Shown piece by piece: positions 38-8,642 of a DNA stretch of 10,374 nt; positions within the stretch are counted from its first letter, which is position 1; the number at the start of each line of letters is the position of its first letter. Both the position numbers and the translations under genes were made by a program. The stretch is from a virus: the UHGV virus genome UHGV-0314755; one strand, given 5' to 3'. The notes below the pieces were generated by a model. The model was given only the letters and a program-made list of their open reading frames with translations, searched no databases and was not told the DNA's origin.

Positions 38-2170
38 ATGGGGCAGCAAGCATGGATAGGAAATATCGCTCAAAAATACAACGAGTTTCTTCAGGTTAAT
101 GGAGAGCCAGGGGATCTTGGTGGTGTGAGTCGTGCAATATCACATGGTAATTCATTGGATGCTCGTGGTTTACGTAATAATAACCCTGGTAATATTGAAG
201 CGAGCAAATCTAACCCGTGGGAAGGTCAGATCGGTAGCGATGGACGTTTTGCAACGTTTGCTACCCCTGAGCATGGAATCCGCGCGTTGGGTAAAAATAT
301 GTTGTCTTACCAGCGTCAAGGCTATGACACCGTTAGCGAGATTGTTAATCGCTATGCTCCGGCTAGTGATGGTAATAATACTGATGCTTATATTAGGGCA
401 TTGTGTGGTGAGCTTGGTGTTGGGGAGAATGATCAGCTTGATATCTCTAACCCAAAGACACTAGCTGCTTTATGTGCTGGGATTATTAAACACGAAAATG
501 GCAGTATGCCTTATAGCACCGAACAGCTTGAAACTGGTATCTCGGCAGCCCTTGGTCTAACTAACCTTGATTCACCTAAGCGTTATACGGGCAATGCGGC
601 ATTTGATGCTATGAGCCCTCAAATGCAAATACAGGCATTGAGGCAGGCTAATGAGCTGAGAAATCAGTACCGCCAGCAGTATGCGGACCAGCTTAGCACC
701 GTAGTTAAAGATGCATATTCAGCCCTTGATGAAGGATTGAAACCTGAGAAGTTACCTTCTGAGGACGATTTTATCCGGGCCAATGGTCCGCGCATTGGCG
801 CTATGAAGTGGAAGGATATGCAGGCGCAGATACAATATGGAGGTGTCATTGGTGCCGCTAAAGACCTCACTCCAGAAGGACGACAAGACATTCTTGAACG
901 TTTACGTCCACAGGATCCAAACGCTCCTGGATTTGCTGCTAACCAGCAACGCTGGGAGAAAATGCAGGCCAAATTTAAAGAGATGGATAGGGAGTGGGAG
1001 ATTCAGCAGGGAAGAAACAGGTTCGTGTCTTCAATGCAAAATAACTTCCCGCTGGACCCGAACGACAAAAACAATCAGGCAGCGGTAGACCGTTATTTCG
1101 CGCAGGATATCGCGCCTTCGTTTTCCATATCTGATCCGCAGAGCATCAATACACTGGTCACCGTCACAACTAAAAGCGGCATGATACCAACTCAGGTTAA
1201 AACAATGCTTAACAGTGGAGCAACATCAAGAGATCCTGCGCTGGTTGTCCCGATGGCAAAATTCTACGGTCAGTTATTCGATAATAATCCGGCGGCAGCG
1301 GCAACACTTGATAAAAGTACGATGGCATTTTACGGCAAGGTTTACGATTATTCCCGCGCTGGCGTGCCGGAGGATAAGGCTGTTGATATGGCTTACAGCC
1401 AGGTGTTCCAACAGGATGACCGAATGAAACAGATGCTTTCCACTGCCATGCGAGACAAAAAATATGTCGCGGCGAGGGCAACTGCTGCACAAAATAACGC
1501 CAGCAGTCTGACTTCCTTTGGTTCGTGGTCTCCGGATATTACCGATCCAGGAAAATCAAATGCGGCCTATCAGCGAGATTACCAGACAATTTACGATGCT
1601 AACTTTGTACAGACAGGTGGCGATGCAGAACAGGCTGAGAAAATGACCAATGCCATGATCAGAACCACCTGGGGAGTTTCTACGGTTAATGGCAAAGCAG
1701 AGGTTATGAAGTATGCACCTGAGGCATTGTACGGAGTAAATAATGGTGCTGGTAACTGGATACAGGGGCAGTGGGAGCAGGAAAAACGCGAGCTTAAATC
1801 AAAATCCTTTGGCGGTCCTCGCAGTGATACGGACTTAATACTTGTTTCTGATGGCCTTACGGCAAGGGATAGGAGTTATGCTGTTATGGTTTTACAGCCT
1901 GACGCAAACGGAGCGATAGAACCGAGAAATTATATTGGAGAAAATGGTCTCCCTGTTCGTTTCAAGCCGGATCAACTGACATCTCCAATGTACAGGCAAA
2001 CCATTCAGTTACAGCAACAGCGTGTTGATGAGGCTAGAGTGCGGAGAGAAGGCAATCCGCTGCCGCAGTTCAGCAATAAAGATGGATATACTCCTCCAGA
2101 TCTGACCAAACCATTCGGTTATGGTTCAGCCAATTACCTTCCGAGCAATATATACGCAGGGGGCAAATAA
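38..2170 (+). CDS. Phage internal virion / DNA-ejection (core) protein, 710 aa; the start may lie upstream of the window
   Basis: Long ORF with enteric-like composition. ATG at 38 is preceded by AAGGA (29-33), but the reading frame stays open back to base 2, so a 5' extension beyond the window cannot be excluded. Stop TAA (2168-2170) overlaps the next gene's ATG (TAATG), indicating translational coupling within a structural operon. Position just before a tailspike gene and size are typical of podovirus ejection/core proteins. The N-terminal ~100 aa contains a conserved-looking block (RGLRNNNPGNIE...GSDGRFATFATPEHGIRA). Product assignment is inference from context. Confidence 0.75.
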   Translation: MGQQAWIGNIAQKYNEFLQVNGEPGDLGGVSRAISHGNSLDARGLRNNNPGNIEASKSNPWEGQIGSDGRFATFATPEHGIRALGKNMLSYQRQGYDTVSEIVNRYAPASDGNNTDAYIRALCGELGVGENDQLDISNPKTLAALCAGIIKHENGSMPYSTEQLETGISAALGLTNLDSPKRYTGNAAFDAMSPQMQIQALRQANELRNQYRQQYADQLSTVVKDAYSALDEGLKPEKLPSEDDFIRANGPRIGAMKWKDMQAQIQYGGVIGAAKDLTPEGRQDILERLRPQDPNAPGFAANQQRWEKMQAKFKEMDREWEIQQGRNRFVSSMQNNFPLDPNDKNNQAAVDRYFAQDIAPSFSISDPQSINTLVTVTTKSGMIPTQVKTMLNSGATSRDPALVVPMAKFYGQLFDNNPAAAATLDKSTMAFYGKVYDYSRAGVPEDKAVDMAYSQVFQQDDRMKQMLSTAMRDKKYVAARATAAQNNASSLTSFGSWSPDITDPGKSNAAYQRDYQTIYDANFVQTGGDAEQAEKMTNAMIRTTWGVSTVNGKAEVMKYAPEALYGVNNGAGNWIQGQWEQEKRELKSKSFGGPRSDTDLILVSDGLTARDRSYAVMVLQPDANGAIEPRNYIGENGLPVRFKPDQLTSPMYRQTIQLQQQRVDEARVRREGNPLPQFSNKDGYTPPDLTKPFGYGSANYLPSNIYAGGK

Positions 2171-5100
2171 TGCCGATATATGAACAGAATCCTAAAGAGT
2201 TGCTTGGCGAGGATATTCAGCAAATAGCAGCACCTGATGACAGTAATTTCTATATGGAAACACCTTCTTTGCTTTCTGCTGTGAACCCATTTACCAGTGA
2301 TCAACGCGTTCAAAGGTCTAGACAAGCAGCATTTCGTATAGATAACACGCTGGGTAGCTTTATTGCCAGTGCTCCTTTCAGTCAGTTTGACAGGGTTGAA
2401 GGATATAACCCATTTGATAACGATGCAGCAGATATTAAAGGCTATGAAGATTTTGCAGATTCGTTTATCAACTCCGGTTCGCATGAAGAAACAATGGCAA
2501 TTAAACATCGAATCGATAAGCAAAGAACAGATAGAGAATATCTATCTGAAATGGGTGGTGCTGGTACTATTTCAAGCTTAGCAATGGGAATGATAGACCC
2601 GGTTAATGTGGCTGCAATGTTCATCCCTGTAGGGGCGGTAGCGCGTGGAGGAAGTATTGCTGAGACGGCAGGGCGTTTTGCCCTAGCGAATGCTGCTGGT
2701 GGGGGAGTATCAGAAGCCGCATTACAGGCCACTCAGGAAGCTCGCTCACCGATGGAGAGCGTATCGAACGTTGTTGTTGATGCTCTCGTTGGTGGGATCC
2801 TTGGTGCTGGTGCACAGCTACTTGCTGGACCTAGCGCGCGCGAGGCAGTGGTTAACTCAGTAGGTAATCATTTGCGAGGTATGGATTCTCCTCAAAGCAT
2901 TGGTGCAGCTCAGGTTTTCAATACCACACTCGATCAGGAACAGCTCGCTGGACTTGGACTTGCTAACAAAACGTTGAGTGTCACTCCTGCTGGCCGCTTG
3001 GCTCAATCACCATCTCTTGTCTCCCGTCAGATTAACCAGCAGCTTGCCGAAAATAACTATTTCTTCGCCAAAAATGATGAGGGGTTGGCTACGTTTACGG
3101 CAGTCGAGACTAAGATTAAGCAATACGACGCCATGCTTTATAAGCAGATGGAAGCCACTCGTGATGCTTACCAGCAGTACAGCAAATCTGTTAGCGCCCG
3201 CGGCGTGAAGAGGATGAGCTTTATTGATTTCAATGAAGCTGTTGGCATGGCTATGCGCCGTGGTGATCAGAGTGATATTCCTGAGGTTTCACAAGCAGCC
3301 GCCAGAATCCGCCCCATTTTCGAGACCACAAAAGCCCGTATGCAGGAACTGGGGATCCTTCCTGAGGATATCGATGTCGTGACGGCGAAAAGTTATCTTC
3401 CCCGCATTTATAAGTTCGATAAGATACTTTCCGACCGCACTGAATTCAGAGGGCGAATTGCCAACTGGATACAAGGGATTAGTGCCAAAGGTGCTGACAA
3501 AGCAGGTCAGCGAATTGAAAGGATAAATTCATTGCTAAAAACTGCAGAGGAATCGGCACCGCGCGCTGATGCTCTCGCTAGTGAAATCGCTGAAGCGGAG
3601 AAATGGTCTGGTAAAAAAATTCTACTTATGGAAGAACTGGATAAACGAAATAAGCTTATATCTCAGGAGACTGACACACAGGCGCGTCTTACAAGAATAG
3701 AAAAAGAGTTGGCCGAGACTTCATCAGAAAAACTTCAGGCAAGAATGATGAAAGAAAGCTCTGACCTTAAAACACGCCTTGATGATATAGCGCAGGCAAA
3801 GAGTGAGCTTCCTGTCTATCAGCGCCATATGGAGTTGCTGGATAATCCACGGAAATATCGTTCTGAGCTTCGCCGACTGCAAAAACGGGCAAATTCAACC
3901 ACAAGGCTGAATGCAAGCCGCGAACGAGCACTGAAGCAGATGGAGCCTCTATCCCGAGAGGAAGCAGAGGACGCTGCTGACGAGATCGTGAATAAAATAA
4001 TAGGCGCACCTTCCGGGCTTGTACCAGCCGATATTATCCCAGAGAGACTCGTTGGTCGGGCTGGTTTCACTAAAAGCAGAACGCTGCTTATTCCTGATGA
4101 GCGTATAGAAGATTTTCTTGAATCAGATGTTAACTACATCATGGAAAGTTATCTCCGGCAGGTGGCACCAGAAATTGAGCTGACTGCGCAGTTTGGCCGT
4201 AAAGATATGGGGGAGCAAATCCGTCAGGTTAGTGAGGAATATACCCGGCTAATAAAAGAGGCTAAAACACCTAAACGACGTGCAGTTCTTGAGAAGCAAC
4301 GGGAGGCTGATATTAGGGATATTACGGCTATGCGTGATCGACTGCTTGGTACTTACGGTGCACCTCAAGATCCACGCAGTTTCTTTGTTCGTGCCGGGCG
4401 AGTTGCTAGGAATATTAACTTCCTCCGTTTGCTTGGTGGAATGACTGTCTCCGCTGCAACTGATCTGATGCGACCGATGATGCAGCATGGCCTGAGAAAA
4501 TCTCTCGGACCAATGGTAAGCATGCTTAAAAATATGGACTCAGTGAAAATTGCAACCAGGGATTTGCGAGAAATGGCCGTTGGGCTTGATTATGTCCTGT
4601 CTACGCGTACAAAGGCTATAGCGGATCTTACTGACCCCTATAGCCGGAGAAGCGCCGCTGAGCGAGGTCTGAACTGGATGACGCAGAAATTCGGTAACTG
4701 GACGCTGATGAATCAGTGGAACAGCGCACTTAAATCATGGTCCGGGATGATAGTGCAGTCGAGGATACTTGACGCGGCTCGCCAAGTTTCTGCTGGTGGC
4801 ACGCTCTCCAAAAGTGAAATGCGGAAGATGGCACAGGTCGGCATCAATGAAGATGTTCTGCGCCGAATCGGGGAGCAATTCGGGAAGCACGGAGAGGATA
4901 TGGACGGGCTGTTAACCGGGCATAGTCATCTGTGGGATGACCGTTTCGCTAGAGAGATTTTCCAGTCTGCAGTGCTGAAAGATGTAGACTCAGTGATTGT
5001 AACGCCTGGCGTAGGTGATACACCGCTGTTTTTTAGTAAAGAAGGCTGGAAGATGATCACGCAGTTCAAAACGTTTATCTTCGCACAGCATAACAGGGTG

Positions 5101-5559
5101 CTAGTATCTGGTATCCAGCAGGGCGATGCTGCATTCTATCTTGGTGCGCTTGGCACGATTGCGCTTGGCTCAATGGTCTATATGATGAAACAGAAGTTAA
5201 GCGGTCGCGATATCGACTACAGCTGGAATAACCTTGTGAAAGAGGGGATCGACCGGGGCGGAATGCTTGGCTGGCTCTCTGAGCCGCTGAATACCGTTGA
5301 GAACATAAGCGGCGGTAGGTTTGGTCTTGGCGCGATGTTTGGTGCGCCTCCGGTATCAAGGTTTCAGAGTCGTAATGCTATTGGTGCTTTACTTGGTCCT
5401 ACCTTTGATCTTGGCGGTGATGCCGCGACGGTTGCGAATGGTGTACTTAACGGAGAATTTGACAGCCAGCAAACCCACGCGGTCCGTAAAATGCTACCTT
5501 TTCAGAACCTGTGGGCGATATCACCGTTACTAAATAAAGTTGAAGAGCAGATGAAATAG
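2170..5559 (+). CDS. Large phage internal virion / ejection protein (ejectosome or tail-hub-like), 1129 aa
   Basis: ATG at 2170 overlaps the upstream stop; SD AGGGGG (2158-2163) with a 6-nt spacer. The protein has Gly/Ala-rich hydrophobic segments (about aa 128-215, e.g. GGAGTISSLAMGMIDPVNVAAMFIPVGAVARGG and VVVDALVGGILGAGAQLLAG), a long charged heptad-like region (about aa 435-610, rich in E/K/R/L/Q) and a second hydrophobic patch near aa 990-1020. This composition is typical of channel-forming ejection proteins. Function is inferred, not shown by search. Confidence 0.8.
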   Translation: MPIYEQNPKELLGEDIQQIAAPDDSNFYMETPSLLSAVNPFTSDQRVQRSRQAAFRIDNTLGSFIASAPFSQFDRVEGYNPFDNDAADIKGYEDFADSFINSGSHEETMAIKHRIDKQRTDREYLSEMGGAGTISSLAMGMIDPVNVAAMFIPVGAVARGGSIAETAGRFALANAAGGGVSEAALQATQEARSPMESVSNVVVDALVGGILGAGAQLLAGPSAREAVVNSVGNHLRGMDSPQSIGAAQVFNTTLDQEQLAGLGLANKTLSVTPAGRLAQSPSLVSRQINQQLAENNYFFAKNDEGLATFTAVETKIKQYDAMLYKQMEATRDAYQQYSKSVSARGVKRMSFIDFNEAVGMAMRRGDQSDIPEVSQAAARIRPIFETTKARMQELGILPEDIDVVTAKSYLPRIYKFDKILSDRTEFRGRIANWIQGISAKGADKAGQRIERINSLLKTAEESAPRADALASEIAEAEKWSGKKILLMEELDKRNKLISQETDTQARLTRIEKELAETSSEKLQARMMKESSDLKTRLDDIAQAKSELPVYQRHMELLDNPRKYRSELRRLQKRANSTTRLNASRERALKQMEPLSREEAEDAADEIVNKIIGAPSGLVPADIIPERLVGRAGFTKSRTLLIPDERIEDFLESDVNYIMESYLRQVAPEIELTAQFGRKDMGEQIRQVSEEYTRLIKEAKTPKRRAVLEKQREADIRDITAMRDRLLGTYGAPQDPRSFFVRAGRVARNINFLRLLGGMTVSAATDLMRPMMQHGLRKSLGPMVSMLKNMDSVKIATRDLREMAVGLDYVLSTRTKAIADLTDPYSRRSAAERGLNWMTQKFGNWTLMNQWNSALKSWSGMIVQSRILDAARQVSAGGTLSKSEMRKMAQVGINEDVLRRIGEQFGKHGEDMDGLLTGHSHLWDDRFAREIFQSAVLKDVDSVIVTPGVGDTPLFFSKEGWKMITQFKTFIFAQHNRVLVSGIQQGDAAFYLGALGTIALGSMVYMMKQKLSGRDIDYSWNNLVKEGIDRGGMLGWLSEPLNTVENISGGRFGLGAMFGAPPVSRFQSRNAIGALLGPTFDLGGDAATVANGVLNGEFDSQQTHAVRKMLPFQNLWAISPLLNKVEEQMK

Positions 5560-6000
5560 CTATTCACAATTAGTGATGGCGTATGTATCAAATATATTGC
5601 CATCACTAAATACATACCTATACTCAATCTCTCCGCCAAGGTGAATAAATGCTTTCATTTGCCTGTTGGAGCAAATGCTCGATTTTGAATAATTTCGCAT
5701 TACACTCTTTAATTTATTTTCTAAGGTTACATCACCATTATAAACTTTTGATAAATAGCTGTTGTTGTAATTAAGATGCGCTACAACTAAGAGTTTGTTT
5801 AGTATTGCATTTATTGAAACAATAGACATATTATCATTCAATTTTATGGGAAGTGACTTTCCTGCTTCTGATGCAATTTTGTTTGCATGTGCACACATAT
5901 CCTCATTTATTAAATTCTTAAAACATATGTCGTTTGCAAACGAAAAAATTGGTAGGATAAACAAAACGGTAGCTGTAATAGCGTGCATCGGCTTAATCAT
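5560..6000 (-). CDS. Small secreted (periplasmic) protein of unknown function, 146 aa; AT-rich cargo gene
   Basis: Only long ORF in a strongly AT-rich segment. N-terminus MIKPMHAITATVLFILPIFSFA/ND has the shape of a Sec signal peptide (positive n-region, hydrophobic core, A-x-A-like cleavage site). The mature part has 4 Cys and is N/K/I/S-rich. An AAGG motif lies 7 nt upstream of the ATG at 6000 (minus strand). The stop (5560-5562) abuts the stop of the 1129-aa gene on the other strand. No recognised family. Confidence 0.5.
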   Translation of the reverse strand: MIKPMHAITATVLFILPIFSFANDICFKNLINEDMCAHANKIASEAGKSLPIKLNDNMSIVSINAILNKLLVVAHLNYNNSYLSKVYNGDVTLENKLKSVMRNYSKSSICSNRQMKAFIHLGGEIEYRYVFSDGNIFDTYAITNCE

Positions 6001-6012
6001 TAGGTGACCTTT

Positions 6013-6462
6013 ATGTTCAAGAAGATGATCAACAGATTAATCGGTGGTAAGGAGGTTAGCAATAAAATTCAACCTCTTATCTTTAAGGATAACTTTTCAG
6101 CTTTTGAGTATGCGTGTAAGTATCTTGACACAAGCCTTTCAGCCAATAAACCAATGCCAGCCATCATCATACCTGGTCCCAGTGGGGAACAGCCAGTTTT
6201 GCTGGATTCTGGAAGACAAAGGGCAATGCTGAAGGTGTGCTCAGCTGATGGTGGATTTTTTGTTATTGCCGATTCATCTTACAGCAAAGGACCAAAGCTG
6301 AGGATTGGTGATCTTGTTGCTTGGTTGCCTGTGAGTTATGCCGAAGAATTAACGGATAAAATAGAAGATCCTCGCTCCGCTATGGTTGGCTTTATATTGG
6401 GAACCATTCATCCTGAACTAACATCTACTGGCTGGAAGGGTAAAGAAAGATTTCGCAAGTAG
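6013..6462 (+). CDS. Hypothetical cytoplasmic protein, 149 aa (cargo gene)
   Basis: ORF open from GTG 6004; the preferred start is ATG 6013, with SD AGGTGA (6002-6007) and a 5-nt spacer. Ends TAG at 6460-6462 and is followed immediately by an intrinsic terminator. No TM segment or signal peptide. No recognisable family by eye. Confidence 0.6.
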   Translation: MFKKMINRLIGGKEVSNKIQPLIFKDNFSAFEYACKYLDTSLSANKPMPAIIIPGPSGEQPVLLDSGRQRAMLKVCSADGGFFVIADSSYSKGPKLRIGDLVAWLPVSYAEELTDKIEDPRSAMVGFILGTIHPELTSTGWKGKERFRK

Positions 6463-6475
6463 CGTGACATGTCAC

Positions 6476-6500
6476 AGGCCGCTTTCGCGGCCTTGTTTTT
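6476..6500 (+). terminator. Rho-independent terminator for the plus-strand transcript (after the 149-aa gene)
   Basis: 7-bp GC-rich stem AGGCCGC/GCGGCCT with loop TTTC (6476-6493), followed by TGTTTTT (6494-6500). It is preceded by a perfect 12-bp palindrome, GTGACATGTCAC (6464-6475). Confidence 0.7.
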
Positions 6501-6537
6501 AACGAATGCCACCGCCGCCCGGGTGGGAATCCGCAGA

Positions 6538-6563
6538 CACAAAAAAGCCCGCGCCGCGGGCTT
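6538..6563 (-). terminator. Rho-independent terminator for the minus-strand transcript (after the 210-aa gene); with the previous feature it forms a convergent terminator pair
   Basis: Palindrome AAGCCCGCG-C-CGCGGGCTT (6545-6563) followed on the minus strand by a T-run (plus-strand AAAAAA at 6541-6546). It lies 4 nt downstream of the TAA stop of the 210-aa gene (6567-6569, minus). Confidence 0.7.
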
Positions 6564-6566
6564 CTA

Positions 6567-7199
6567 TTAATGCAGTTTATCTTTGCTTATAACCAGTAGT
6601 CTGTGGGTATGCACATCTTTATCACTGCCCCAACAGAAATCAGCCCACTGGCTATAGAAATCATCCCATGATGTCATGAAGCTAAGAGGTCTATCTTCTT
6701 CAGAGCCATCTGAAACGTATACATTATATCCCGGGGTGTTTATAGCCCAAGAAATCATTCTTTCCCAGAATCTTCTCCCATCGATTGTTTGTTGCTCATC
6801 AGATACAACGATCGCATATTGCTCTAGGAAGAACTGAAAAAAAATCTGAGGCAAACCATGAACAGCACGGTCATGAATAACATTAGGCGTACGCCATACC
6901 ATGATCTGCGTACATGTTCTTTTGGCTTCGACGATATCTTCCCGAAAGATTAACTTAACCGCATACACCGTTTCTGGAGTATCGCTGGTAGTAATCATTC
7001 TGTAATGATCGCCATTACAAGATTTTACAAGGCGATAACCATAAGGTGTTGTGAATCCCGGAAGAACGAAATCAACCACACCTTTCGCTAAGTAGCTTTC
7101 GGTGTGACTAGTGTTCTTCTCAGACATGTTCAGTTTTCTATCGAAATCTGCTTCTGGGATAATGTATGGCATCGCTTTTCTTGTTGTATTTGTTTTCAT
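6567..7199 (-). CDS. Hypothetical protein, 210 aa (orphan cargo gene, Trp/aromatic-rich C-terminus)
   Basis: Strong SD GGGAGGA 5 nt upstream of ATG 7199 (minus strand). Clean ORF ending at a good terminator. No TM segment or signal peptide. Operator copy 1 (TTACC-N5-GGTAA) lies 60 bp upstream, overlapping a TAATAT -10-like hexamer. No family recognised; an R-x5-H motif (RTPNVIH) is noted but is too short to interpret. Confidence 0.7.
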   Translation of the reverse strand: MKTNTTRKAMPYIIPEADFDRKLNMSEKNTSHTESYLAKGVVDFVLPGFTTPYGYRLVKSCNGDHYRMITTSDTPETVYAVKLIFREDIVEAKRTCTQIMVWRTPNVIHDRAVHGLPQIFFQFFLEQYAIVVSDEQQTIDGRRFWERMISWAINTPGYNVYVSDGSEEDRPLSFMTSWDDFYSQWADFCWGSDKDVHTHRLLVISKDKLH

Positions 7200-7258
7200 T
7201 TCGTCCTCCCATGTTTGGCTACAGGACGCGTTTTGAAGGGAAGATTAAAAACGCTTTC

Positions 7259-7273
7259 TTACCCGTAAGGTAA
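7259..7273. promoter_or_regulatory. Operator copy 1: palindrome TTACC-cgtaa-GGTAA upstream of the 210-aa gene
   Basis: Exact TTACC(N5)GGTAA. It overlaps a candidate minus-strand -10 (TAATAT, 7278-7273), with a weak -35-like TTGGCG 18 bp further upstream (7302-7297). It is one of three copies in the window, all in non-coding regions upstream of or between minus-strand genes. Confidence 0.5.
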
Positions 7274-7315
7274 TATTACGCGAATCTACATCACATCGCC
7301 AATGATTATTTTAAA

Positions 7316-7331
7316 GGCACATCCCTGTGCC
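7316..7331 (-). terminator. Possible weak terminator or stem-loop just downstream of the antirepressor gene
   Basis: 6-bp stem GGCACA/TGTGCC with loop TCCC, starting 8 nt after the ant stop (7339-7341). The following minus-strand sequence is TTTAAAATAAT, a poor U-tract, hence low confidence. Confidence 0.3.
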
Positions 7332-7338
7332 GCCGCCG

Positions 7339-8049
7339 TCAGAAGAACCCTGCCTTGTCGTTGATGTACTCCGCGTGCGTCTGGATATCACGCAGGCATT
7401 TGCTCACACCGACGATGTAGCAGAACATGGTGGTCAGCTCCGCCGCCGCGCCCGATACGTCGTGCCCGTCTTCCTGTAACTGGTTCAGCAGATTCATCAG
7501 CAGTGAGTTTTCCGTCAGGCCGAGAACACCAGACGGAGAATGAATCAGGCTGCGGTAGCCGGGCTTCAGTGGGGCGCTGTAGGTTTTGTTCTCTATCTTC
7601 ATTGCCTGCATCACTGCTGATGCTGTGGCGTTGGCTACCTGGTCGGCAACCATCTTTATGCGTTCTTCCTGCGGGAGCGAGTTTTTAATGTAACTTCCTG
7701 TGCGGCGGATCTGAGGAAGAACCTCACCTGTAACCCATTTACGAAAGCGGTAGGGGATAGTGCCTGGTGTTACTGCATCGCGGCAGCGGAGGATCAGTGT
7801 GTAGAGGCCTGACTCGGAGATGATGTTGATCTCTTTTACTCGGCTGTCAAAAATTGCACGATGTTCATGCCCTATGTTGAACATAGACCTTTCATCATCA
7901 TCCAGTTTTTCAAGTGATTGGGTGACGTTTTGGATACGCAGCGCACTACAAACGTCTTGGGCTACAAACCATGGTTGGCCATCGATAATGATGGAACGGA
8001 TAGGGTTAACAGATTCAAATTTGAAGATGGCAGTTTGAGCATTAGCCAT
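7339..8049 (-). CDS. ant: Phage antirepressor, 236 aa: Bro-N-type N-terminal domain plus Ant-type C-terminal domain
   Basis: N-terminus MANAQTAIFKFESVNPIRSIIIDGQPWFVAQDVCSALRI matches the Bro-N / P22-antirepressor N-terminal signature (F.F....IR....DG.PWFVA.DVC..L). Preferred start is ATG 8049, with SD GGAGA and an 8-nt spacer; the ORF track's extension to 8064 uses a GTG with no SD. The C-terminal ~65 aa are about 45% identical to the 85-aa protein encoded at 8365-8622. Confidence 0.85.
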   Translation of the reverse strand: MANAQTAIFKFESVNPIRSIIIDGQPWFVAQDVCSALRIQNVTQSLEKLDDDERSMFNIGHEHRAIFDSRVKEINIISESGLYTLILRCRDAVTPGTIPYRFRKWVTGEVLPQIRRTGSYIKNSLPQEERIKMVADQVANATASAVMQAMKIENKTYSAPLKPGYRSLIHSPSGVLGLTENSLLMNLLNQLQEDGHDVSGAAAELTTMFCYIVGVSKCLRDIQTHAEYINDKAGFF

Positions 8050-8060
8050 GGTGGTTATCT

Positions 8061-8145
8061 CCACTTAGTGATTTTAATCACCACCGCAACGCCAATTACT
8101 GGTGGTGAACTGGACAAGGTTGGCGTACCGGCCTAAGTGGTACCG
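8061..8145 (-). promoter_or_regulatory. Candidate promoter/operator region of the antirepressor gene
   Basis: Minus-strand -10-like TAAAAT (8076-8071), about 20 nt upstream of the ant start region. An 8-bp inverted repeat, TCACCACC (8078-8085) / GGTGGTGA (8101-8108), sits over the -35 region. The 8-mer CCACTTAG occurs at 8061-8068 and 8234-8241, and inverted (CTAAGTGG) at 8133-8140. GTACCGGC is directly repeated at 8125-8132 and 8140-8147. Promoter assignment is tentative. Confidence 0.35.
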
Positions 8146-8205
8146 GCGTCCTTTCGGACCCCTGCCCAGCCCACCATAATTCGGATATAGCTGTGCTTAA
8201 CGCAT

Positions 8206-8228
8206 AAAAAAACCACGTCTGGCGTGGT
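8206..8228 (-). terminator. Rho-independent terminator on the minus strand, between the small Ant-like gene and the antirepressor gene
   Basis: Minus strand reads ACCACG-CCAGA-CGTGGT followed by TTTTTTT (plus-strand A7 at 8206-8212). It lies downstream of two further hairpins (8247-8262 and 8262-8283). Confidence 0.55.
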
Positions 8229-8302
8229 ATGCGCCACTTAGTAACTCGGGACGCCAATCCCGGCACTGGATTTTGCCAGTGCCCGATTACTATGGCACAA
8301 GA

Positions 8303-8364: not shown

Positions 8365-8622
8365 TTATCTGGTTTGTTTTCGTAATTGTTCGGCACAATA
8401 GTCGAGATGTGTTTGCAGATCCTGCATAGACATCTGTGAGCTGGTGACGTAGTTAATCAGTGCAGTCAGTTCGGCAAGTGGGCCATCGACATTAAATCCA
8501 TCCTTATCGAGATCCCGGAGTAATTTCATCAAGTGCGATCCCTCCACCAGTGACCTGACGCCTCCCGGCGTGTGAATCCTTTCGGTAAATCCGTCTTCCA
8601 GTGGATAGTGATACTGCTGCAT
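8365..8622 (-). CDS. Small antirepressor-like protein, 85 aa: free-standing homolog of the Ant C-terminal domain, probably SOS-controlled
   Basis: Preferred start ATG 8622 (SD GGAG, 8-nt spacer); the ORF track's start at 8637 has no SD and would leave only 7 bp between the start codon and the LexA box. The sequence TERIHTPGGVRSLVEGSHLMKLLRDLDKDGFNVDGPLAELT...DLQTHLDY aligns with the ant product's LIHSPSGVLGLTENSLLMNLLNQLQEDGHDVSGAAAELT...DIQTHAEY. A near-consensus LexA box lies immediately upstream. Confidence 0.75.
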   Translation of the reverse strand: MQQYHYPLEDGFTERIHTPGGVRSLVEGSHLMKLLRDLDKDGFNVDGPLAELTALINYVTSSQMSMQDLQTHLDYCAEQLRKQTR

Positions 8623-8642
8623 CTTAATCTTCTCCATGCAAT

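Follow-up and report, generated by a model that had tools for sequence, protein, structure and literature searches.

Small phage proteins of the cell envelope that stop DNA entry are known from T4 (Imm and Sp), T5 (Llp), phi80 and N15 (Cor), TP-J34 (Ltp) and lactococcal phages (Sie2009). In T4 the entry block relies on two proteins at different layers, and genes of the Sie2009 type adjoin the repressor gene. The lambda-type morons, such as bor and lom, and the P2/P4-like defence hot-spots form sharp-edged cassettes of deviant base composition, with their own terminator and promoter-like element. Here we describe a locus that shares features with both groups, positions 5560-7338 of a stretch of 10,374 nucleotides (nt) of the virus genome UHGV-0314755. 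This stretch (the window) comes from a prophage of Escherichia coli that is epsilon15/phiV10-like (Uetakevirus-type). The locus holds three genes, for proteins of 146, 149 and 210 amino acids (aa), between the last ejection-protein gene and an antirepressor gene (Table 1); an earlier note, made from the sequence alone, had taken them for a three-gene orphan island with a candidate defence or exclusion function. We are highly confident of a different architecture: the locus is part of a hypervariable slot that runs from the ejection gene to the antirepressor and tailspike genes, and it consists of two independent cassettes, below called modules A and B, joined by a terminator-bearing linker.

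The closest described system is that of phage P22, in which the interval from the ejection genes to the tailspike gene holds sieA with mnt (PMC10883804). SieA blocks DNA injection, and mutations that escape it lie in the ejection proteins gp16 and gp20 (PMC10883804); sieA is a prophage-encoded accessory gene whose envelope-located product acts on the ejection-protein conduit (PMC10883804). The likeness in position is close. The P22 genes sieA-mnt-arc-ant, like those of the window, are found in a temperate podovirus, between the last ejection gene and the tailspike gene and next to an antirepressor module, and in both cases the interval can be dispensed with and varies from relative to relative (phage L has only 836 bp there). 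The earlier suggestion of a variable-cargo hot-spot, a positional analogue of P22 sieA-immI, is therefore well founded, since related prophages carry variable cargo at this place. The products, however, differ: SieA is a multi-pass inner-membrane protein, whereas module A, as judged from its genes, would provide a soluble periplasmic protein of pilotin fold and a cytoplasmic protein, and no sequence or PHROGs relationship links the two. Homology is likewise absent between module A and T4 Imm/Sp or the lipoprotein blockers, the 146-aa protein being neither a lipoprotein nor membrane-anchored and the 149-aa protein having no transmembrane (TM) segment. With the Sie2009-type genes the likeness is one of neighbourhood, for in Acinetobacter a gene of the 149-aa family also stands beside a repressor gene. 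As in the lambda-type morons and the P2/P4 hot-spots, cassettes are swapped between near-identical prophages, many cargos occur at one locus, and the 210-aa gene takes a bor-type position in phage LLS; unlike in the P2/P4 defence hot-spots, none of the slot cargos tested matches a PADLOC defence model.

Two cassettes in a hypervariable slot

Pairwise blastn comparisons placed homology break-points at 5559/5560, ~6460, 6537/6538 and 7258/7259. These delimit module A, the 146/149-aa gene pair (5560-~6460), module B, the 210-aa gene (6538-7258), and between them a GC-rich (guanine- and cytosine-rich) linker common to all phiV10-like relatives. Among 5,426 complete E. coli genomes, module A was found in 14 and the 210-aa gene of module B in 93, and none had both; neither a complete E. 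coli genome nor a deposited phage covers at least 80% of the stretch 5400-7500. As is characteristic of morons, the cassettes have sharp edges, and phage genomes that otherwise hardly differ may have or lack them. A large assembly collection has the exact 146-aa protein indexed in 2,401 blocks, and we looked at 10 neighbourhoods: in all 10 the gene lies beside the genes for the 149-aa protein and for the 1129-aa ejection protein. The adjacent, second sub-slot, next to the antirepressor gene, has at least nine alternative cargos there, among them a YafO-type toxin-antitoxin pair, DUF4760 and proteins of 272, 287 and 146 aa; the YafO-type toxin and DUF4760 are the only recognised families among the slot cargos. 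The gene combination of the window, with a 53-aa gene in addition, was met in one place, OZ038804.1. The first sub-slot is occupied in relatives by a + strand gene of 283, 126, 98 or 46 aa.

It had been proposed that a convergent pair of terminators bounds the island. The pair is there, and it is strong, but it lies inside, between the 149-aa and 210-aa genes, where it separates modules A and B; the idea of a single three-gene island gives way to that of two separately exchanged modules with a conserved terminator linker between them. The linker, which carries the + strand terminator, is rich in GC (61.5% over 6463-6566). Going by the break-points, the linker is a recombination joint between the two cargo sub-slots.

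Two observations concern the surroundings of the linker. In many relatives a ~190-bp cassette with the gene for a 53-aa 'transmembrane anchored protein' (WP_000708858) sits exactly at 6537/6538; it is not found in the window. In E. coli CS5L (locus L004, NZ_CP158311.1) homology to the window stops at 6552, directly past the linker, and is followed by ~1.6 kb of unannotated sequence and then by yqeG and yqeF of the host; the arrangement resembles that of a truncated prophage with a deletion end-point at the same joint.

All three open reading frames (ORFs) listed by the earlier note are genuine genes. They are under purifying selection, with a ratio of nonsynonymous to synonymous substitution rates (dN/dS) of 0.23 for the 146-aa gene and 0.08 for the 149-aa gene; for the 210-aa gene dN is 0.11 and dS is saturated. 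Together with conservation across genera, this rules out spurious ORFs. The sharp shift in composition that the note had described is also real, since the AT-rich part at 5560-6000 has a GC content of 30% in the intervals over 5551-6000, as against 47-48% in the ejection genes. Taken gene by gene, the values are 32% (146-aa), 42% (149-aa) and 41% (210-aa), so that the atypical base composition expected of a moron is present in all three.

The absence of any recognisable family, as first judged by eye, held up as well. Scans of the three proteins against Pfam, NCBIfam and PADLOC gave no match, profile searches against PDB sequences with all three families found nothing, and the PHROGs families concerned (phrog_8772, phrog_9944 for the 149-aa and phrog_1349 for the 210-aa protein) are all of 'unknown function'. 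In tblastn searches against 50,697 phage records, the 146-aa protein had no homologue, the 149-aa protein one remote homologue and the 210-aa protein three close ones, and the literature on the RefSeq accessions and on related exclusion and defence screens yielded nothing relevant. Prophage moron cargo in a hot-spot is a known kind of feature, whereas the protein families are, as far as these searches show, undescribed.

The 146/149-aa gene pair

The 146-aa product is probably a Sec-exported, non-lipidated, doubly disulfide-bonded periplasmic protein. That it is secreted had been noted before, and its cleavable signal peptide (SFA|ND) is kept across the family: signal peptidase I (SPase I)-type sites (SFA|ND, AFA|NN, ALA|ES and others) and the lack of a lipobox are common to all 11 members. 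Down to 25% identity, the signal peptide, the cysteines C26, C36, C110 and C145, and the motifs CxPNLIxEDxC and LGGE are invariant. In the AlphaFold2 model, the predicted local distance difference test score (pLDDT) is >90 in the mature domain and <50 in residues 1-25. C110, at the end of a long helix, and C145, at the C-terminus, are candidates for the conserved disulfide that in the AspS/PA3611 family ties the C-terminal segment to helix alpha2.

The predicted structure of the mature domain has an AspS/PA3611 pilotin-like fold, alpha1-beta1beta2beta3-alpha2alpha3-beta4beta5. [quoted passage not shown] The structures compared were those of AspS (YghG/GspS-beta) and of Pseudomonas aeruginosa PA3611 (PDB 4FTF, 5ZDH and 3NPD), a fold that clamps a C-terminal helical peptide of the secretin. 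The topology of the 146-aa protein is of the PA3611 type, with the extra helix after beta3 and likewise with no lipidation. Pilotin function needs a lipobox, i.e. an outer-membrane lipoprotein routed by Lol; it is absent here, as it is in PA3611, which is not an established pilotin. There are also differences from AspS: identity is 15%, the gene is phage-borne, an N-terminal Cys-Cys loop (CxPNLIxEDxC) is added and the C-terminal helix alpha4 is missing. Searches for membership of a pilotin sequence family gave neither a Pfam nor an NCBIfam match, and the PDB-sequence profile search was empty. A lipoprotein or true pilotin was rejected for want of a lipobox. A phage-borne soluble pilotin fold is undescribed, as far as these searches show.

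The 146-aa gene lies directly against the last large ejection gene (968-1137 aa), and convergent with it, in nearly all lineages sampled. This is the case in E. coli, in Providencia (37% identity), in Cedecea (hhalign probability 99%) and on IMG/VR contigs (29-40% identity), one of which (locus L035) has a small 94-aa ORF between the two genes. Most of these lineages have no 149-aa partner gene. The constancy of this arrangement bears on a rival explanation suggested by the fold, according to which the protein is host-physiology cargo: it would act on a host secretin, e.g. the GspD S-domain of the beta-type type II secretion system (T2SS-beta), as a decoy or protective chaperone, and so alter secretion, piliation or virulence, the other two genes of the locus being unrelated fitness morons. 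We regard this as improbable. The 146-family gene stays against the ejection gene across genera at 25-40% identity while its surroundings are exchanged. At all loci seen it is prophage-borne and beside ejection genes, never in a gsp operon, and the low identity to AspS and the missing Pfam pilotin match point the same way.

The second gene of the pair is divergent from the first. Its likely start is ATG 6013, because AGGTGA precedes it and the alternative GTG 6004, which would give 152 aa, is inside that Shine-Dalgarno sequence. The close family of the 149-aa protein is small; a profile search extended it to 308 cluster representatives, 171 of them at E <= 1e-10. Many members are C-terminal domains that follow TM anchors or zinc ribbons, and one is fused to a Zeta-toxin-like kinase; the E. 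coli protein has no TM segment. Even a 76-sequence profile found no Pfam or PDB relative, and Pfam scans of every member of the family alignment, like those of the 210-aa family, gave only scattered chance matches. In three diverged prophage lineages of Acinetobacter, a TM-anchored homologue lies 4-18 nt downstream of a CI-type repressor gene, on the same strand as CI and opposite to cro. Neighbours of remote chromosomal family members (L079 3866-4411, L059, L058 and L076) are GmrSD_N, PIN_12 with a serine resolvase, a phage muramidase and VapC; the GmrSD_N restriction-like gene is separated from the 149-family gene by a 51-nt gap and is on the same strand. The CI-adjacent and GmrSD/PIN contexts speak to some extent for a role of the 149-aa gene in the lysogen or in exclusion.

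The divergent start codons of the two genes are 12 nt apart (5998-6015), their translation-initiation regions overlap, and the Shine-Dalgarno sequence of each adjoins the start codon of the other. With such a placement, each mRNA should begin inside the other gene and the antisense 5' ends should overlap. A comparably close spacing, 19 nt, is seen in Cedecea (L015). In Providencia the position of the 149-aa gene is taken by a 95-aa gene that is not a homologue (hhalign probability 0.8%).

Another possible reading of the 146/149-aa genes is a toxin-immunity or toxin-antitoxin-like addiction pair. Pfam does give a match of the 146-aa protein to Ntox35 (E = 0.056), YafO toxin-antitoxin pairs are present in neighbouring sub-slots, and there is the 149-family member fused to a Zeta-toxin-like kinase. 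Yet the Ntox35 match, at 14.6 bits, is under the cut-off of 23.6 and disagrees with the confident model, a pilotin fold, and for these reasons an Ntox35 toxin was rejected. Moreover, the genes are divergent and not co-transcribed, the products belong to different compartments, exported and cytoplasmic, and the 146 family is widespread without a 149-aa partner. We consider an addiction pair hardly credible.

The explanation that we tentatively put forward, and which may well prove wrong, is that module A is a lysogen-expressed superinfection-exclusion device working at the level of the envelope. The module would be expressed from the prophage and act at the cell envelope, where the periplasmic 146-aa protein could attach to part of an ejection protein as it enters, or inhibit the transglycosylase of these proteins; either way, the trans-envelope DNA conduit would fail to assemble. 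The 149-aa protein would act on the cytoplasmic face, and the whole would resemble P22 SieA or T4 Imm/Sp in function. Lysogen expression would agree with the orientation of the AT-rich 146-aa gene, antisense to the late operon, and with the CI-adjacent 149-family gene of Acinetobacter. The envelope location that characterises the effectors of exclusion is predicted for the 146-aa protein by its signal peptide and four invariant cysteines, and many proteins of the 149 family are TM-anchored. A more detailed version is a two-compartment podovirus exclusion system, in which the peptide-clamping pilotin fold would have been re-purposed in a soluble protein that captures a helical ejection-protein segment, aborting the conduit. 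The 149-aa domain would represent a widespread lysogen-expressed family, with ~300 clusters at 50% identity, whose members act on the inner membrane from its cytoplasmic face; that all of this applies is unlikely.

Several observations weigh against an exclusion device. For the AspS fold a secretin S-domain is the sole ligand known, and this is no phage protein. There is no likeness to known exclusion proteins in the PHROGs, Pfam and PDB searches; PADLOC-DB v2.0.0 gave no match for the three proteins (E <= 1), and 10 alternative cargos have no match in it either (E <= 0.01). No sigma-70-like promoter scoring at least 9/12 points toward the 146-aa gene, promoter-like sites are not above the shuffled expectation, and a relaxed scan of the start region of the 146/149-aa genes gave weak matches only. 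Among 120 E. coli genomes with an ejection gene of at least 99% identity, only 14 (~12%) have module A, and distant 146-family loci have no 149-aa partner; the two members of the pair thus need not cooperate. Some remote 149-family genes have housekeeping neighbours, some adjoin MeaB, and the family recurs across many Maricaulis species, in a branch that may be chromosomal rather than mobile. As to the earlier proposal of a defence or exclusion function, structure searches gave no housekeeping or virion role that would refute it, nor did they show a defence function, and no catalogued defence family was matched.

The 149-aa gene, moreover, is on the late-operon strand, and the only thing that stands between it and the ejection gene is the hairpin at 5570-5609. 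This hairpin is strong (z = -5.2 on the + strand and -3.65 on the - strand, 0/200 shuffles), but it is not a canonical terminator because it has no U-tract, so the 149-aa gene could be a late gene. The claim that the island is expressed independently of the late operon is therefore not sustained for this gene, which no canonical terminator precedes; it is plausible for the 210-aa gene, with its promoter-like element, strong Shine-Dalgarno sequence and terminator. In a rival explanation built on these facts, module A serves the lytic cycle of the phage: the late operon would end with the 149-aa gene, transcribed by read-through to 6476-6493, and the product of this gene would assist the maturation of virions or ejection proteins or the timing of lysis. 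The antisense 146-aa gene would be a modulator or unrelated. This explanation agrees with the position of the first canonical + strand terminator, directly after the 149-aa gene, and with the sub-slot of the relatives, always filled by + strand genes (46, 98, 126 and 283 aa). On the other hand, the 149-aa gene is dispensable, being absent from 106 of the 120 E. coli prophages whose ejection gene reaches 99% identity or more, and deposited phiV10-like phages do not have it. The Acinetobacter family members are in a lysogeny operon by the CI gene, and many other members are chromosomal and membrane-anchored. A lytic role appears to us distinctly improbable.

The same hairpin consists of an 11-nt perfect inverted repeat (5570-5580 / 5599-5609), which is interleaved with an 8-nt repeat (5581-5588 / 5610-5617). 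Possible roles of these repeats are a 3' end of the late transcript, a pause site or a barrier to antisense read-through.

If module A did act in exclusion, the building of the trans-envelope channel by ejection proteins could be approached more easily through it: the blocker would be soluble and periplasmic, its peptide-binding fold is a known one, and its gene is locked to the ejection gene. A function for the 149-aa family, with its hundreds of clusters and no Pfam model, would annotate many genomes, and the slot, with conserved flanks and at least nine unannotated alternative cargos, could be mined for exclusion, defence and counter-defence genes. Should cloning give no phenotype, the region would be another set of prophage morons.

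The 210-aa gene

The family of the 210-aa protein comprises 63 clusters across Enterobacterales. It is constant in length, and about 45 residues, polar ones in many cases, are invariant or almost so; the invariant polar residues include C96, D134, T138, G141, R143, D164 and R200. The best structural matches of the model (pLDDT 83, predicted template modelling score, pTM, 0.79) are GCN5-related N-acetyltransferases (GNATs) throughout, which weakly suggests a protein distantly GNAT-like in its predicted fold. Compared with GNATs, including the toxins KacT/TacT, it has a conserved beta-loop-alpha, VVSD-EQQTxDGRRFW, where the loop for the pyrophosphate of coenzyme A (CoA) would be. Two results speak against an acetyltransferase. 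The canonical motif A, Q/RxxGxG/A in the beta4-alpha3 loop, is absent from the family alignment; in its place is a conserved Q137-T138-x-D/E-G141-R/K-R143-F-W, positioned on the fold from the secondary structure of the model only. Furthermore, 44 family members and the window protein gave no Pfam acetyltransferase match, nor did NCBIfam give one for the window protein. A toxin-antitoxin module with a GNAT toxin was rejected, there being no antitoxin gene. On the evidence of the model, module B most likely encodes an acyl-CoA-type transferase or a ligand-binding accessory protein, with a putative role in defence or counter-defence.

As far as its sequence elements tell, module B is a self-contained moron, with promoter-like element, Shine-Dalgarno sequence, gene and terminator. 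The promoter-like element overlaps a TTACC-N5-GGTAA palindrome at 7259-7273. The upstream element is also found in the lambdoid phage LLS, 5' of its 210-aa homologue, and part of it (7259-7304) is common to prophages with other cargo, so that this part looks like a promoter of the slot. The 'operator' that had been assigned to the 210-aa gene probably comes down to the imperfect inverted repeat at 7223-7259 and the palindrome, and the leader RNA has no significant structure (z = -0.9).

The 210-aa gene occupies three moron slots: the podovirus slot described here, a place after Rz/Rz1 in phage LLS, and one before the tape-measure gene in Serratia. In E. coli it always follows a BRO-N/Ant gene, which in the window is 140 nt away on the same strand, with no canonical terminator between. 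In siphovirus-type prophages of Serratia, P22-type antirepressor/Arc genes are beside it in three of the four loci shown. Such company suggests another explanation, in which the protein is a counter-defence or host-takeover enzyme and does not protect the lysogen. It could, for example, be an acetyltransferase directed against an immune protein or a metabolite of the host, which it would inactivate; its expression would coincide with that of the BRO-N antirepressor, on induction or at an early stage of infection. The control of the antirepressor operon by the antisense RNAs isrK and C4 fits this proposal, as do the GNAT-like fold and the enzyme-like invariant polar residues. Nevertheless, the gene has a promoter-like element and terminator of its own, it has no antirepressor neighbour in phage LLS or at Serratia locus L009, and the GNAT assignment is weak. 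One of the alternative cargos, in addition, is a toxin-antitoxin pair of the YafO type, a kind of pair typical of functions that are expressed in the lysogen or serve abortive infection. A counter-defence enzyme expressed in this way is possible, although we would rather doubt it.

Flanking genes and further variable sites

Table 1. Features of the locus and its flanks, numbered from the first nucleotide of the window
Feature	Positions	Strand	Basis
710-aa ejection protein with transglycosylase, phrog_1044	38-2170	+	
1129-aa internal virion/ejection protein, phrog_342	2170-5559	+	
Gene for 146-aa exported protein (module A)	5560-6000	-	
Strong hairpin, 11 nt past ejection-gene stop codon, within 3' end of 146-aa gene	5570-5609	+	
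Signal-peptide part of 146-aa gene (residues 1-22), SPase I site SFA|ND, no lipobox	5935-6000	-	
Gene for 149-aa cytoplasmic protein, phrog_9944, divergent from 146-aa gene (module A)	6013-6462	+	
GC-rich linker common to all phiV10-like relatives	6461-6537	.	homology break-points
Intrinsic terminator ending the transcript of the late operon/149-aa gene	6476-6493	+	
Intrinsic terminator directly after 210-aa gene	6543-6565	-	
Gene for 210-aa cytoplasmic protein, phrog_1349 (module B)	6567-7199	-	
Shine-Dalgarno sequence GGGAGGA of 210-aa gene	7204-7210	-	sequence, conserved
Imperfect inverted repeat in 210-aa gene leader, 15-nt arms, 80% complementary	7223-7259	.	
Promoter-like element, TTGGCG, 18 nt, TAATAT (8/12 matches)	7259-7302	-	
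BRO-N antirepressor gene, right flank of slot	7339-8064	-	
90-aa gene	8365-8637	-	
Tailspike ORF, running past right end	from ~8800		

On the left of the slot, the 1129-aa protein carries the RefSeq name 'DUF919 family', which stems from a marginal Pfam match (23.4 bits, residues 530-575) to a baculovirus family over a weak coiled-coil; by PHROGs it is an internal virion protein (phrog_342). On the right, the 90-aa protein matches the same PHROGs (phrog_450 and phrog_15539) as does the BRO-N antirepressor in its C-terminal third, which makes the 90-aa gene a stand-alone paralogue of the antirepressor C-terminal domain. Directly upstream of the BRO-N gene, on the - strand, Rfam gave gathering-level matches to C4 antisense RNA (8098-8181, 66 bits) and to isrK (8206-8282, 67 bits). 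These point to an antirepressor operon of the P1/P7 c4-ant or Gifsy-1 isrK type, controlled by antisense RNA. Promoter-like sites near this region are at 8361-8333 and 8317-8289 (- strand). No tRNA was found in the window.

Between the BRO-N gene and an 85-aa p24-like gene there is a third variable sub-slot, as seen in IHE3034 (L023), TL-2011b (L007) and loci L003 and L005; depending on the prophage, it contains a YafO toxin-antitoxin pair, a 242-aa protein or an IS3 element. The tailspikes downstream of it are exchanged too, and comprise endosialidase, SGNH hydrolase and GH28 types.

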